DNA of 64,000 nt, taken from positions 72,916 to 136,915 of IMG/VR virus record IMGVR_UViG_3300021400_000128, one strand, 5' to 3'. The stretch comes from a virus (lineage: Duplodnaviria; Caudoviricetes). Shown here piece by piece: positions 300 to 54,116 of this stretch. Position numbers and translations under genes: made by a program. A model generated the notes under the pieces. It was not told where the DNA came from and did no database searches. It was given only the letters and a program-made list of their open reading frames with translations. Each line of letters begins with the position of its first letter. Position 1 is the first letter of the stretch.

Positions 300-443
300 T
301 TGACACTCCCCATGCCTAAAGGCAGGGGATTCTCTCTCGATGACGGTAACCCGCCAAGCATAAAAGAGCTATCTCCGTGTGCCCCACGGTTAGTTCGTCT
401 TTGACCCCATAGCTAAAGCAAGGGGATTGCAGACGGTTTTTTG
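300..443 (-). mobile_element. Non-autonomous IS605-type mini-element (left end + omegaRNA + right end, no ORF)
   Basis: Right end TTGACACTCCCCATGCCTAAAGGCAGGGGATTC identical to the TnpB elements; left-end hairpin CCCCATAGCTAAAGCAAGGGG; flanked by TTGAA (444-448, minus strand). Confidence 0.9.
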
Positions 444-11150: not shown

Positions 11151-11496
11151 TTTCCACTACCCTTTCTTTTTTATATGCAAGCCACGTTTTCCCGTAATTA
11201 GCAGCATAAAACAATCTTGGATCAGTCAAAATTCCTTCAATAAAAGATTGTCTGATAACTACCCAGCCGCAATGTTTCTTTCCGATACTTTGAGATTCTA
11301 TCCAGATAGGTTTTCCGACCATCTGTTGAAGTTCTTCATATTCAAGTGGCTCGTTTTCAACATTTTCAAGCATTTCTCGATACTCTGTCAGATAGTGGAT
11401 CGTATCTGACAGCTCATTTTCATGCAGCTTAATCATTTGGTCATCATCAGGCTGCAAATCAGACAACCATGTGATTATTTCAGTTAAAGATTTCAT
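11128..11496 (-). CDS. Hypothetical protein, PLxxEEL..M.GKP.W family
   Basis: Motif shared with 49971, 55361 and 56303. Confidence 0.65.
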   Translation of the reverse strand: MKSLTEIITWLSDLQPDDDQMIKLHENELSDTIHYLTEYREMLENVENEPLEYEELQQMVGKPIWIESQSIGKKHCGWVVIRQSFIEGILTDPRLFYAANYGKTWLAYKKERVVENGFIKRD

Positions 11497-24386: not shown

Positions 24387-24502
24387 TTGACACTCCCCAT
24401 GCCTAAAGGCAGGGGATTCTTGCTTCACCCACCACAGCATGATTTTCATCACGTCTTACACGATGTCCACAAGCGTTGATTCCCGTGTGTCCCACGGTAT
24501 TT
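24387..24502 (-). ncRNA. TnpB omegaRNA (reRNA) scaffold overlapping the tnpB 3' end
   Basis: ACCGTGGGACACACGGG hairpin ... GTGAAGCAAGAATCCCC ... GTGTCAA. Confidence 0.8.
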
Positions 24503-25599
24503 TCTTTTAAAATTTCCAATCCTTTATTCAGAATGTTGATCGCTGCATTAGCATCACGATTATGATGAGTTCCACATTTTGGACAGTCCCATTCTCGGAT
24601 CGATAAATCCTTTACTTCAGGATTTTTATATCCGCATTGGTTACATGTCTGACTGCTTTCATAGAAGCGTGGTATTTTAACTAATATTCCTTTCCTGTCA
24701 CTCATCTTGTATTGCAGCATTCTGAAAAATTCACTCCAACTTACATCTGCGATTGATCGTGCTAATTTATGATTTTTCATCATTCCTTTGATGTTCAGAT
24801 CTTCAACACATACAACTTGATTCTCGTTTGCAAGTGTTGTTGTCACTTTATGAAGGAAATCTGTTCTGATATTAGTCACTTTTTCGTAAGCAATCGCAAC
24901 TTTTATTCTCTGCTTTTCTCTGTTGTTGCTCCCCTTTACTTTTTTTGACATTCTTCTTTGTGTTCTTGCAAGTTTTTTTGCGTATTTTTTATATGTTTTC
25001 GGATTCGGGATACTATTTTCATTACTGTCAACAAGAAAATCTTTGATCCCAACATCTATTCCAATAATGCCTCCGTTATTTGTCAATTCAGGTTCATCTG
25101 TCTCAACACAAAGCGAAACATAATACTTTCCACTCATCGATTTACTTATTGTTGCATTCAGGATTCGTCCATCGAAGTGTTTCAGTCCTTTATATCTGAC
25201 ATAACCGATTTTAGGTAGCTTGATTGTATTTGCGACAAGCCTAATTCCGTTACTCTGATTTCTTGTTCTGAAAGATTGTTTTCTTTTCTTTGAATGGAAC
25301 TTTGGGAATCCGGCATTCCTTTTGAAGAAATTTTGATAAGCCTTATCTAAATCCTTCAAAGTCTCTTGATATGCCATGCTGTCGGTCAGGTTTAGCCATT
25401 CTTGAGTTCCGTCTTTTTTTAGCTCCGTCAACAACCGCATCGTTTCATACATTGACACTGATTTCTTTTCTTCTTTGTATGACTTAATCCGAAGATCAAG
25501 AAAATGATTATATACATAGCGAACATTTCCAAATGTCTGCTCAATTTGGCTCTTTTGTTCTCTCGTTGGATATAATCTCGCCTTGTATCCTTTGTTCAT
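24403..25599 (-). CDS. tnpB: RNA-guided endonuclease TnpB
   Basis: YKARLYP HTH; RuvC GIDVG / VEDL / RDANAA; CNQC...CPKC. Confidence 0.95.
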   Translation of the reverse strand: MNKGYKARLYPTREQKSQIEQTFGNVRYVYNHFLDLRIKSYKEEKKSVSMYETMRLLTELKKDGTQEWLNLTDSMAYQETLKDLDKAYQNFFKRNAGFPKFHSKKRKQSFRTRNQSNGIRLVANTIKLPKIGYVRYKGLKHFDGRILNATISKSMSGKYYVSLCVETDEPELTNNGGIIGIDVGIKDFLVDSNENSIPNPKTYKKYAKKLARTQRRMSKKVKGSNNREKQRIKVAIAYEKVTNIRTDFLHKVTTTLANENQVVCVEDLNIKGMMKNHKLARSIADVSWSEFFRMLQYKMSDRKGILVKIPRFYESSQTCNQCGYKNPEVKDLSIREWDCPKCGTHHNRDANAAINILNKGLEILKENTVGHTGINACGHRVRRDENHAVVGEARIPCL

Positions 25600-25724
25600 A
25601 CAACACTCACTCGAATAATATTAATATTACCGTCTTTCATCCCCATAGCTAAAGCAAGGGGCTTTTCGGCGATTTTTGGTAATCGCCCAACTGTCCGCTC
25701 AGTTCCATTTGAAAACGTGTCATT

Positions 25725-28610: not shown

Positions 28611-29867
28611 TTAGCTTCGTGGGAGGAACGCCGAATTTCTTTTTTCAACAATGTAACTATTATTAGGTTGTATCAGTTTTAATTTCTTGTAACTGACTGA
28701 ACCATTATTTACCTTTGTTCCGTCCAAAGAACGGATGTCAAAATATCCACTATCTCGACGTCCAAATACAATATATGGCTTATCTTGATACACAACCATA
28801 TCGAACAACCGAAATCCCCTTACTTCGTGTGGAGCTTGATTTCTCTTTTTTGCCCCACCTTTCAAAAAATTACATTTGTGTATCTGCCTGTTGTGACAGC
28901 GAACTTTTCTGTAGAAAAAGACTTCACCGTTACTCTTCGCTGTAGGATTCCCGCTGATACACCGTGCATCGATGTAATGATCCTTTGGTAACCCATTCTC
29001 AATACGAGTATGTTTTGTGATATACCCATAAGTAAGATTCACGTTAAGATATGTCTGCTTCAGTTTTCCGTAAAATGCCCATCGCATGATTCCCATAAAA
29101 GCAGCATCTTTGAAACTCATACCGCGTTTAATTCTTTTCGGGAGATCAACTGTTCCGTTATGATATCCTTTATGACAGGTCTCACACAGCGTAATAAGAT
29201 TGTTCGGAGCATCTCCACCGGTTTTCCTTGATTCAATATGATGCACATTCAGAATCTTATCTTTTGACTTTCCTTTACAGCATTGACACTTATGACCATC
29301 CCTGTATAAAACATATTCACGCACATTCCAAAATCCTAACTGTTCACCCTGCTGATACTCTGCACCACTGATTTCAGGATTCTTGATTTTCTGAATATCA
29401 AATGAAGCAACCTCCACCATTATTTTTGAAACGGGTAGTATATTATGGATTCTCCGAATAAATGAAAGATGCGTGTCAACCTTCTGCTGTACTGAAGGTG
29501 CTAACCAGCCGTCTTTCCGCTTGCGGTTATCAAATCTTGCTTTGCGATAACGTAGTTTACGGTTCCGGCGAGAGCTTCTTTGTTCTCTCCGGGATGAAAG
29601 CAATTTCACGATATCGTTTCTTACTTCAACATTTGCTTCAAATAAGACTTTTTCTTTTGTTGTAGTAGAGATACCAATCACCTTTGATCCGGCATCGACG
29701 CCTAAAGTAACCTCCTGCGTATAATTTGTTGTTTCATACGCTAACTGTATTGTGAACGGACATTTCTTGATTACCTTTGCCTTATGCGACTTTAGGAGAA
29801 TACGCACTTTTGCATGGTTCTCTGTGGGCATTAAGGGCTGTCCGTTTGCGCTTATAACATAAACCAT
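28611..29867 (-). CDS. iscB: RNA-guided endonuclease IscB
   Basis: PLMP domain; LGVDAGS; Arg-rich bridge helix; VEVASFD; CQCC..VHHI..NLITLCETCH (HNH); HYIDA. Confidence 0.95.
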   Translation of the reverse strand: MVYVISANGQPLMPTENHAKVRILLKSHKAKVIKKCPFTIQLAYETTNYTQEVTLGVDAGSKVIGISTTTKEKVLFEANVEVRNDIVKLLSSRREQRSSRRNRKLRYRKARFDNRKRKDGWLAPSVQQKVDTHLSFIRRIHNILPVSKIMVEVASFDIQKIKNPEISGAEYQQGEQLGFWNVREYVLYRDGHKCQCCKGKSKDKILNVHHIESRKTGGDAPNNLITLCETCHKGYHNGTVDLPKRIKRGMSFKDAAFMGIMRWAFYGKLKQTYLNVNLTYGYITKHTRIENGLPKDHYIDARCISGNPTAKSNGEVFFYRKVRCHNRQIHKCNFLKGGAKKRNQAPHEVRGFRLFDMVVYQDKPYIVFGRRDSGYFDIRSLDGTKVNNGSVSYKKLKLIQPNNSYIVEKRNSAFLPRS

Positions 29868-29879
29868 ATTATCGTTTTC

Positions 29880-30159
29880 TCCTTTCCTAACTCTTTTCGA
29901 GTTAATAACTCACTCCGAAGAGCGGTAAGCATACCTTCGCCAATGTTATCCCAAGGTTTTGTATGTCTGCATCACTGTTCCTTCCTCACAGAACTGTTTA
30001 AACACAGACCGTAGTGTTCGGAATTAGGTATTACGTCCCGAAGTACCTATATATTCTCAGGTAACGTAGTGCTCATGGCACTTAGGCTATTCAATGTGAA
30101 TTGCTTTTCGGTTTTTGCCATCAGCAATCCCCGAAGCTTTAGCTTCGTGGGTCATTGAA
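29880..30159 (-). ncRNA. IscB omegaRNA (HEARO-type)
   Basis: TTCAA...TTGAATAGCCTAAG...ACTACGTT...TTTAAACAGTTCTG...AACATTGGCGAAGG upstream of iscB. Confidence 0.88.
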
Positions 30160-33116: not shown

Positions 33117-33554
33117 TCAGGCAGTCACTTTGCGAAAGCTGACCGTCGGATTCCCGATCTTCTTGGCGATCCCGATTTCAGGGAATTGCTTTTCCAGCAC
33201 TTTAAGCGTTTTCCCGTCCCATGTCGTCTTACCGGACACCCAGCACGCCATCAGGGATTCACCCTTGACCGTCGCACCGCATTCAAGAACATCGTTCTTG
33301 ATTTCTGCTTCGAGCAGTCCGATCTGTTCGATCAGGTCGGCGTTCTTAGCTTCAAACTGTGCCATCAGTTCGTTATAGACGTTCCGAAGGTTGTTCAGGA
33401 CATCCAGCTTTTCTTCTGTTGTTACCTTTGTCGTTACGATTTGACATTCCTCATAATGGGGATTCTCTCTCGACAATGGCAATCCATTGAGCATAAAAGA
33501 GCTATCTCCGTGTGTCCCACGGTTCGTTTTTGTTACGATTTCGATGTTTTCCAT
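33117..33554 (-). CDS. Coiled-coil phage protein (Gam/Gp157-like) carrying an in-frame 99-bp omegaRNA insert
   Basis: C-terminal GKTTWDGK.L.....PEI...K.GNPTVSFR; roughly residues 9-38 derive from the omegaRNA. Confidence 0.6.
   Translation of the reverse strand: MENIEIVTKTNRGTHGDSSFMLNGLPLSRENPHYEECQIVTTKVTTEEKLDVLNNLRNVYNELMAQFEAKNADLIEQIGLLEAEIKNDVLECGATVKGESLMACWVSGKTTWDGKTLKVLEKQFPEIGIAKKIGNPTVSFRKVTA
33441..33524 (-). ncRNA. Immobilised TnpB omegaRNA copy inside a CDS
   Basis: 33458-33524 matches 52172-52238 at 66/67 nt; right-end hairpin shortened; no left end. Confidence 0.8.
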
Positions 33555-33714
33555 TGTTGCCTCCGTTATTCAAAATTCATCATTCAACTTACATTTATTA
33601 TTATACGAGTTTTTATATATTTGTCAATGTTTTTAATTATTTTTATTACATCTTTTTATTTATCGAAGTTATGACATTCCAGTTGAAAAATTAACCGGAT
33701 TATCTCCGGTTAAT
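33555..33714 (-). promoter_or_regulatory. Terminator + early promoter cassette
   Basis: TTAACCGGA..TCCGGTTAA hairpin; TTGACA at 33622-33627. Confidence 0.8.
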
Positions 33715-52146: not shown

Positions 52147-52240
52147 TTGACACTCCCCATGCCTAAAGGCAGGGGATTCTCTCTCGACAATGGCAATCCA
52201 TTGAGCATAAAAGAGCTATCCCCGTGTGTCCCACGGTTTT
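52147..52240 (-). ncRNA. Right-end omegaRNA of the adjacent TnpB
   Basis: ACCGTGGGACACACGGGGATAGCTC...GAGAGAATCCCC...GTGTCAA. Confidence 0.85.
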
Positions 52241-52248
52241 TATCAATG

Positions 52249-53379
52249 CTATTGTGCATATAATAACAACCCTTGTTTTCTGATATTGATAGCAGCATTC
52301 AAGTCTCTGTTGTGAACTGTTCCGCACTCAGGACATATCCAACTCCTATCACCTAATTTCAATTCAGCATTTACATATCCGCACTGATTACACGTTTTTG
52401 AAGAAGGAAACCACTTGTCTATCGCGATGAGCTTCTTTCCACGCTCAATCAGTTTATAGGACAGAAATGTTCTAAATTGTCCGAAACCGTTATCAGTCGT
52501 TGCTTTGGCAAGGTGTAAACCCTGTGACATTGCCTTATAGTCAATATCTTCCACGGCAATAATATCATATTGATCCGCAAGTTTGGTGCTCAACTTGTGC
52601 TGCCAATCTTGCCGACAATTGCGTACTTTTTCAAACGCACGAGCAACCTTGATTCTCTGCTTTTCCCAATTTGAGCTTCCTTTTTGTTTTCTGGATAATC
52701 TCCGTTGTTCACGTGCCAATTTTCGTTCCGCTTCACGGTAGAAATGGGGCATATCTGCTTTATTTCCTTCGCTATCCACATAAAAATGTGGGGAACTGTA
52801 ATCAAGCCCGATTGAATTTTCAGTATTCAGTTCACGTTCAGGAATATCAAGCTCATACTCAAACCCGATGGATACAAAATACTTTCCACTCGGTTCCTGG
52901 GACACTGTAGCATTCAGGATTCTTGCTCCTTCCGGTAATTTTCGGCACAGCTTTGTTTTCACTATTCCTAATTTTGGAAGGCGCACATTCCCGTTCTCAA
53001 TCCGCGTAACATTGTCGCATCCGACCGTTTGATAGGATTTTTGATTATCCTTCTTGCGCTTGAATTTCGGGAATCCAGGAGTACCACCCTTTTTTACGTT
53101 CCTGAAGAAATTCTGATACGCAGTATTCAGGTTACGGAGCGCACATTGCAAGGCGTTTTTATCCGGTTCTTTCAGCCATTCGTATTCATTCTTCAAGTCA
53201 GTAAGCATCTTGTTCTGCTGAAAAAATGATCTGCTTTCACCGTTTTCTTTATAAGCGGTGATTCTATCAAAAAGGAAGTGATTATAAACAAAGCGAACAC
53301 ATCCGAAAGTCTTCTGAATCAGCTCTTCTTGCTGCTTATTTGGATAAATTCTGTATTTGTATGCTTTATTTGAAATCAT
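52249..53379 (-). CDS. tnpB: RNA-guided endonuclease TnpB (CRISPR-adjacent), RuvC D-E-D intact
   Basis: KAYKYRIYP; IGLDYS / VEDI / RDLNAA; CNQC...CPEC. Confidence 0.95.
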   Translation of the reverse strand: MISNKAYKYRIYPNKQQEELIQKTFGCVRFVYNHFLFDRITAYKENGESRSFFQQNKMLTDLKNEYEWLKEPDKNALQCALRNLNTAYQNFFRNVKKGGTPGFPKFKRKKDNQKSYQTVGCDNVTRIENGNVRLPKLGIVKTKLCRKLPEGARILNATVSQEPSGKYFVSIGFEYELDIPERELNTENSIGLDYSSPHFYVDSEGNKADMPHFYREAERKLAREQRRLSRKQKGSSNWEKQRIKVARAFEKVRNCRQDWQHKLSTKLADQYDIIAVEDIDYKAMSQGLHLAKATTDNGFGQFRTFLSYKLIERGKKLIAIDKWFPSSKTCNQCGYVNAELKLGDRSWICPECGTVHNRDLNAAINIRKQGLLLYAQ

Positions 53380-53396
53380 TTTTCTTCCTTTTTACG

Positions 53397-53546
53397 AATT
53401 TTGCAGTCGTCTATACCCTCTTTTGGTAGGGGCTATCATCGGTTGGTATATACGTACCTAATTTAACAGGTGTCTATACCTTGGCTGCTATGTAGTAACC
53501 GGGGTTCTTTGGTATATACGTACCTAATTTAACAGGTGTCTATACC
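53397..53546 (-). CRISPR. Mini CRISPR array: two identical 36-nt repeats + degenerate terminal repeat, spacers 30 and 27 nt
   Basis: GGTATAGACACCTGTTAAATTAGGTACGTATATACC at 53511-53546 and 53445-53480; 17/21 match at 53397-53417. Confidence 0.85.
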
Positions 53547-53547
53547 T

Positions 53548-53675
53548 GGTATATTATCTTGTAAAATAAGGTACGAACTTCTTGCTTCACCGACCGCTCA
53601 GTGCAATCTCCACAAGCGTTATGTTCCCGCATACCCTGCGGTACAGTTTTAACAGTGTTTCACTGTGTTGCACTT
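53548..53675 (-). ncRNA. omegaRNA-derived tracrRNA-like scaffold with anti-repeat
   Basis: Shares TTCTTGCTTCACC and TCCACAAGCGTT with the omegaRNA at 24417-24477; anti-repeat 53548-53575 (21/28); TATAAT at 53679-53684. Confidence 0.8.
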
Positions 53676-53709
53676 ATTATTATACTCAATATCCTTGTTT
53701 TGTACAGGT

Positions 53710-53736
53710 ATTAGTGTAAAATAGTGTTACACTAAT
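53710..53736. promoter_or_regulatory. Palindromic operator in a divergent promoter region
   Basis: ATTAGTGTAA-7nt-TTACACTAAT overlaps the TG-TAAAAT -10 of the RHH gene. Confidence 0.65.
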
Positions 53737-53752
53737 TTGAAAGGCGGTTGCT

Positions 53753-53905
53753 ATGGTTTCCGATAACAATACCCGTGTCATGGTCACTATCCCGAAAGAG
53801 TTGAAAGAACAGTTGTCTGTCATTGCAGAAAATGAAGGACGCTCCCTTTCTAACCTCATTGTCCAGATTCTAAAAAATTATGTAAATGAATCCTTGACCC
53901 CATAG
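53753..53905 (+). CDS. Ribbon-helix-helix (CopG/Arc-like) regulator, 50 aa (below ORF-track cutoff)
   Basis: MVSDNNTRVMVTIPKELKEQLSVIAENEGRSLSNLIVQILKNYVNESLTP; GAAAGG RBS. Confidence 0.85.
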   Translation: MVSDNNTRVMVTIPKELKEQLSVIAENEGRSLSNLIVQILKNYVNESLTP

Positions 53906-54116
53906 CTAAAGCAAGGGGATTGCAGACGCTTTCCCATTCAATGTTTTCCTCACGGCATTTGTTACATCCATCTTTTTCATTACAATAATTATTTCTCGTG
54001 ATAAAATAGCATAACGTCGCACCATTACATAACTGTTCTCTCTCAATTTCAGTACAAGTAATTTTCATCTCTAACTCCACATGTAACACCGTCGAATGTA
54101 GCATTCAGTCAGCTTT

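Follow-up and report, generated by a model that had tools for sequence, protein, structure and literature searches.

A TnpB omegaRNA scaffold carried in frame within a phage gene, probably as the relic of a mini-element

A phage gene encoding a 145-residue protein contains a 99-bp insertion that derives from a TnpB omegaRNA, and its reading frame stays open through the insertion. The locus lies in a 64-kb stretch of DNA (hereafter the window), the final part of a virus record that is 136,915 bp long and bounded by direct terminal repeats. We put at slightly better than even (about 0.55) the probability that the insert is what remains of an omegaRNA mini-element, immobilised and in frame, persisting through ribosomal read-through and the lack of clean excision; its use as a weapon against phages with the uninterrupted gene is possible, if rather unlikely. 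An earlier sequence-only reading of this DNA had proposed the derivation from a TnpB omegaRNA, the in-frame position and probable immobility (there are no working transposase hairpins), and on all three points the present analysis agrees.

RESULTS

The insertion and its host gene

The features of the locus, all on the minus strand, are as follows.

33117..33554 (-): host gene, 145 aa, annotated without function (no Pfam or PHROG family)
33600..33627 (-): consensus sigma-70 promoter (TTGACA, 16-nt spacer, TATAAT)
33441..33539 (-): 99-bp insertion relative to empty alleles, a 7-nt target copy (33533-33539) plus a 92-nt decayed mini-element
33532..33541 (-): left copy of a 10-bp direct repeat
33433..33442 (-): right copy of the repeat, overlapping the last 2 right-end bases and guide positions 1-8
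33522..33532 (-): 11-nt left-end stub
33425..33440 (-): 16-nt guide equivalent, the 3' flank of the right end, equal to the empty-allele sequence after TCGAA

The insertion point is 20 nt into the host gene. As had been reported, the two repeat copies are spaced 99 bp apart and the ORF reads through from one to the other, giving a peptide of the form IVT...IVT. Residues 9-41 are absent from 22/22 homologues of the host protein (102 to 118 aa long), and the nine mates in its 90% cluster comprise seven members of 112 aa and two of 145 aa; since most of these proteins lack the 33 codons, the insert is real and derived. The extra residues fall in the N-terminal stretch, the most variable part among homologues. 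Searches of Pfam and PHROGs matched no family to the host gene, and a BLAST comparison of the locus with deposited phage genomes found nothing similar. Empty alleles, as anticipated, do exist in close relatives: metagenome contigs contain DNA with one copy of the repeat and nothing between.

A strong Shine-Dalgarno sequence precedes the gene, and the strong promoter suggested nearby is present at 33627-33600(-), matching the consensus at 12/12 positions in the same orientation as the scaffold. It is kept in relatives L005, L007 and L167, and is predicted to drive the host gene together with the embedded scaffold.

Within the insert, 7 nt of duplicated target are followed by the stub, the scaffold, a shortened right-end hairpin and the terminal TGTCAA. 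Positions 33458-33524(-) match 52172-52238(-), directly behind the stop codon of a resident tnpB gene, at 66/67 nt, as noted earlier; a 35-mer from this match occurs at these two places only (0 expected by chance). The right-end hairpin is a net 8 nt shorter, its upper 4 bp missing, with the TGTCAA end retained, also as described. The insert shares that end with five right ends that are intact, and all similarity between the flanks stops right past it. The statement that there is no left end was correct for the hairpin and too strong for the remainder, as the stub agrees at 11/12 with the sequence that two mini-elements (window 300-443 and contig L167) carry immediately 3' of their left-end hairpin. 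The stub could equally be a fusion in which the opening 7 nt of the left end meet its closing 4 nt; under both readings the left-end hairpin is absent, and a genome-wide hairpin scan found no sub-terminal transposase hairpin at the locus. Because the left-end hairpin is lost and the right-end one lacks its upper 4 bp, the insert looks immobile. With a full right-end hairpin it would be 107 nt long and out of frame, with a stop codon right after; at 99 nt the frame is open.

The scaffold and the resident TnpB

The insert retains most of an omegaRNA scaffold, and its proposed partner is the TnpB encoded in the same window.

33441..33524 (-): omegaRNA scaffold of the insert, 84 nt (covariance model CM R1)
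33518-33522/33508-33512 (-): stem 1
33513-33516/33443-33446 (-): putative pseudoknot strands
33495-33501/33465-33471 (-): stem 2
33484-33489/33474-33479 (-): stem 3
33448-33462 (-): stem 4, shortened
52249..53379 (-): tnpB, 376 aa, ISDra2-like RNA-guided nuclease with all three TnpB Pfam domains and an aligned RuvC D-E-D
52147..52238 (-): cognate omegaRNA scaffold and right end of this tnpB, with the stem-3 variant shared with the insert

CM R1 scores the insert at 88.4 bits across model positions 1-92, and intact copies at 117-119 bits. In the alignment the guide-proximal hairpin (stem 4) is incomplete, missing its upper 4 bp on both arms and having one C-A mismatch in the lower stem; stem 1, the pseudoknot strands, stems 2 and 3 and the lower part of stem 4 remain. 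Across the five intact scaffolds 98% of cells are paired, versus 36-57% for slid partners. In stem 3, both partners have changed in three pairs, a covariation seen among five sequences only; the four pseudoknot pairs can form in every copy including the insert, with one A-U to G-U change as the sole variation.

The resident protein aligns end to end with ISDra2 TnpB (PDB 8EXA/8BF8/8H1J; PMC10097598; E 5e-85), keeping the catalytic D-E-D and the residues that read the G and A of the TAM (equivalents of K76 and Q80). The scaffolds are also alike: the stem 1 loop can pair with positions -6 to -3 (the putative pseudoknot), stems 2 and 3 are nested, and a UUUA-capped hairpin precedes the guide. Unlike ISDra2, the resident protein has no C-terminal tail and the whole of its 92-nt scaffold is downstream of the stop codon; the inferred TAM is TTGAA rather than TTGAT, and the equivalents of Y52, S56, F77, T123 and N124, which contact the other three TAM positions, differ. 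In ISDra2 the hairpin overlapping the right end is reported to tolerate mutation (bioRxiv 10.1101/2025.02.11.637750) and its loop is disordered (PMC10097598), so binding of the shortened scaffold by TnpB is still plausible by analogy.

In a relative, L155 (2404-2426), C-to-T changes in the right-end hairpin break the DNA hairpin and keep G-U pairs in the RNA. This is a single case of the pattern expected if the RNA, and not the transposase site, is maintained.

IS200/IS605 elements of the phage

The genome contains three TnpBs, one IscB, one TnpA and at least three gene-less mini-elements. Those not listed above are as follows.

300..443 (-): intact gene-less mini-element, 144 nt, of the insert's omegaRNA type, with both end hairpins, following TTGAA (444-448)
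24403-25599 (-): second tnpB, 398 aa (element 24387-25661), sharing the right-end hairpin, with a different scaffold middle
3810-~3990 (-) and genome ~11194-11375 (-): two near-identical gene-less mini-elements with another middle part, both after TTATC
28611-30159 (-): IscB, 418 aa (RRXRR and HNH), with HEARO RNA (Rfam RF02033, 130.7 bits, full-length)
Genome 68.3-70.0 kb, outside the window (L042 248-1896): tnpA-tnpB pair, Y1 transposase of 137 aa and a third tnpB of 412 aa

Most copies share one right-end hairpin and TGTCAA, and all IS200/IS605 ends found in the genome are on the minus strand. (The motif TTGAA is also commoner on that strand, 455 versus 294 across the whole genome.) The HEARO RNA directly upstream of IscB makes this a second class of RNA-guided nuclease in the phage. 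The tnpA-tnpB element has a left end that looks unlike the hairpin family of the other copies, and its Y1 transposase gene is the only one; the transposase that moves the hairpin-family copies may thus be absent from the phage.

At four sites the left-end hairpin is preceded, at a distance of exactly 18 nt, by TTGAA; these are the mini-element at 300-443, L167, viral contig L104 and the hairpin that lies upstream of tnpB 52249-53379. In a sister subfamily TTAT(C) occurs 16-17 nt before the hairpin. Deriving the TAM from the left end of the tnpB element alone was judged unsafe, as L155, whose tnpB is 87% identical, differs on both sides of that hairpin.

Several further observations concern these elements. 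The left end of the second tnpB (24387-25661) interrupts a small ORF that follows a promoter of early type; in L167 the leader of that small-ORF cassette has instead a gene-less mini-element of the other scaffold type after TTGAA. Upstream of tnpB 52249-53379 an Arc/RHH gene lies on the opposite strand (53753-53905(+), in the region 53380-53945(-)), between the left-end hairpin (53898-53918) and tnpB, and the gap also holds a stretch resembling the RNA of the second tnpB and two tandem ~41-nt repeats; L155 has the same layout. Viral contigs L056, L058, L069, L083 and L088 carry ultra-short elements of ~50-60 nt, consisting of a TTATC site, 15-17 nt and a single hairpin with a right-end tip ending in TGTCAA, so that one hairpin apparently serves both ends.

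Guide, target and alleles

The 16 nt that would serve as guide correspond, as predicted, to the uninterrupted allele: positions 33425-33440 match empty alleles at 16/16 (L172 and L181) or 15/16 (L005 and L006), and 14/16 is also seen. The phage genome contains no other TAM-flanked match to the guide. The agreement had been taken to indicate domestication, a step that does not follow, since any IS200/IS605 insertion by its nature carries a guide that matches its own empty allele (Meers et al., PMC10055086), and such a match does not point to domestication. The target follows TCGAA in 12/12 empty alleles and in all alleles at the site, so that the target is one base off the TTGAA of natural insertion sites; both halves of that earlier observation are borne out. 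The companion idea that one transcript serves as both mRNA and guide does not survive: if an omegaRNA matured from this mRNA, the ORF would be severed from its ribosome-binding site and start codon, and a single molecule could not do both.

The window and four contigs carry the insert without a single base difference, on three flanking backgrounds. Contig L170 carries the flanking variants of empty alleles L005 and L006, with the window's variants and the insert from 33184 to 33605, and differs from the window within the host gene at three sites, all synonymous. This pattern fits short-tract transfer; small mosaic tracts are common in the region. The resident tnpB and the insert occur on one 47-kb metagenome contig, and insert (L174) and empty (L180) alleles were recovered in one assembly.

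In the 12 empty alleles, variation within the opening ~130 nt of the gene is confined to the 16-nt target: guide position 10 shows two different changes and positions 7, 9 and 15 one each, forming six haplotypes. That number is reached in 10 of 324 sliding 16-nt windows, all of them overlapping the target (p roughly 0.03 for a window fixed in advance). By hand count, non-synonymous and synonymous changes stand at ~4:2 in the target versus 10:19 in the rest of the gene, too few for support. The variation fits escape from the guide, and it fits weak protein constraint at those residues too; the G-to-A change at position 9 could also arise by loss of the insert across the imperfect repeats.

These data bear directly on the strongest alternative, that the insert is a working stand-alone guide with which TnpB 52249-53379 cuts the uninterrupted allele of co-infecting relatives. 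Cutting would kill the relatives or convert them (non-restorative homing), and hairpin loss would shield the guide from excision. The scaffold is complete except for upper stem 4, the ISDra2 hairpin data cited above are compatible with its function, stand-alone omegaRNAs work in trans (PMC10691335), and the insert has its stem-3 variant in common only with the resident tnpB and the near-identical relative L030. The co-occurrence of L174 and L180, the empty-type background of L170 and the rank of the target as the top 16-nt window for haplotype number also speak for it. Against it, TCGAA is present in every allele where natural insertion sites have TTGAA, the perfectly matching alleles L172 and L181 persist, distant homologues vary as well in the part of the protein that contains the variable target, the L170 tract is of a kind common throughout the region, and some G-to-A variants could be revertants. 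We hold this alternative to be possible, at well short of even odds; its most specific form, in which an immobilised allele-killer guide sits in an mRNA and the substitutions at positions 7, 9 and 10 are escape mutations, is more doubtful still.

Origin of the insert and of the duplication

A derivation simply from the end of the 52-kb tnpB does not fit the two ends of the insert. The last 15 nt, at the right-end tip, equal metagenome copy L166 and are unlike the resident tnpB, and the left stub matches the mini-elements. The stem-3 variant, conversely, is limited to the resident tnpB, L030 and the insert. With a tip of L166 type and a stem 3 of resident type, the insert is a mosaic, most simply an older mini-element whose core was homogenised with the resident copy. 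L166 was also considered as a second copy without a left end and dropped, as its alignment shows a divergent left end. A 16-mer scan of viral contigs gave mostly chance matches, the real ones being L030 and L015/L155 only.

At the flanks 7-10 bp are duplicated. IS200/IS605 insertion makes no target duplication (PMC10055086), so simple insertion by TnpA does not account for the origin, and none of the other copies in the genome has such a duplication. The insert departs from the site rule of mobile PATE and mini-elements on two counts, having TCGAA for TTGAA and the 7-10-bp duplication. The duplication could have arisen by two TnpA events at pseudo-sites 7 nt apart, by recombination between adjacent insertions, or by templated repair.

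The last of these routes extends to an account of the whole insert, in which a break or a stalled fork in the gene was patched with sequence from an omegaRNA-bearing element, through template switching or microhomology-mediated repair. A duplication foreign to TnpA chemistry (PMC10055086), a copy that begins just 3' of the hairpin, and AA/AAC microhomology at both junctions are in keeping with such a patch. The right junction, however, is the exact canonical right-end cleavage point and the site follows a near-TAM, no other copy has a duplication for comparison, and TnpA events at two neighbouring sites or adjacent-insertion recombination give the same structure; we regard a templated patch as improbable.

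DISCUSSION

The reading that we favour, an immobilised in-frame relic, may be set out as a series of events. A gene-less PATE-type mini-element, carrying only the omegaRNA of an ISDra2-like TnpB, would have inserted 20 nt into the conserved host gene and then lost its whole left-end hairpin and the upper part of its right-end hairpin, both of which the Y1 transposase requires. Its final length, a multiple of three without a stop codon, would have yielded a protein with 33 extra N-terminal residues. An insert without hairpins would not be cleanly excised, and frame and immobility alone could explain its persistence. The central 67 nt may be near-identical to the resident scaffold through recent shared origin or gene conversion. 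The scaffold would be transcribed in the mRNA, where TnpB may bind or process it, and its guide would name the uninterrupted allele. Against this reading, the decay is very uneven, with one change in 67 nt of scaffold versus heavy loss in both transposase hairpins, a pattern that selection to keep a guide safe from excision would also produce, and the empty alleles vary most in the guide target. The duplication, too, speaks against a plain insertion.

TnpB matures omegaRNA from its own mRNA. In this gene the scaffold separates the conserved body of the ORF from its ribosome-binding site and start codon, so that TnpB binding or processing 20 nt past the start codon might lower translation of the host gene as TnpB accumulates; we think such regulatory capture very unlikely.

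Elements of this general kind are known. Stand-alone omegaRNAs have been described and their biological role is stated to be unknown (PMC10691335). In stand-alone omegaRNAs and PATE-like elements (Altae-Tran et al. via PMC10691335; Meers et al., PMC10055086), a scaffold occurs without an adjacent nuclease gene, with a compatible TnpB in the genome, as here. Again as here, the guide is the right-end flank and intact sister mini-elements are present in the same genome. Unlike those elements, the insert has lost both transposase hairpins, is probably not mobilisable, has a 7-10-bp duplication and lies in frame in a translated ORF. The proposed cutting of the insert-less allele matches the concept of 'transposon non-restorative homing' in a review of phage endonuclease homing and interference (PMC13565253); unlike that of homing endonucleases, the proposed specificity would come from an orphan, immobile RNA in the mRNA of another gene. 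What distinguishes this locus is the loss of hairpins with the scaffold kept, the read-through by ribosomes, the flanking duplication and the natural series of target alleles.

The locus is a natural test case, with one fixed guide, a defined target, both alleles and target variants in the same samples, and the TnpB nuclease on the same contig as the insert. If the guide works, it would represent use of TnpB by phage against phage and a route from a selfish transposon end to a fixed guide gene; if it is idle, the locus would be an example of a phage gene that has taken in a transposon scar, cut back to a length that keeps the frame open.
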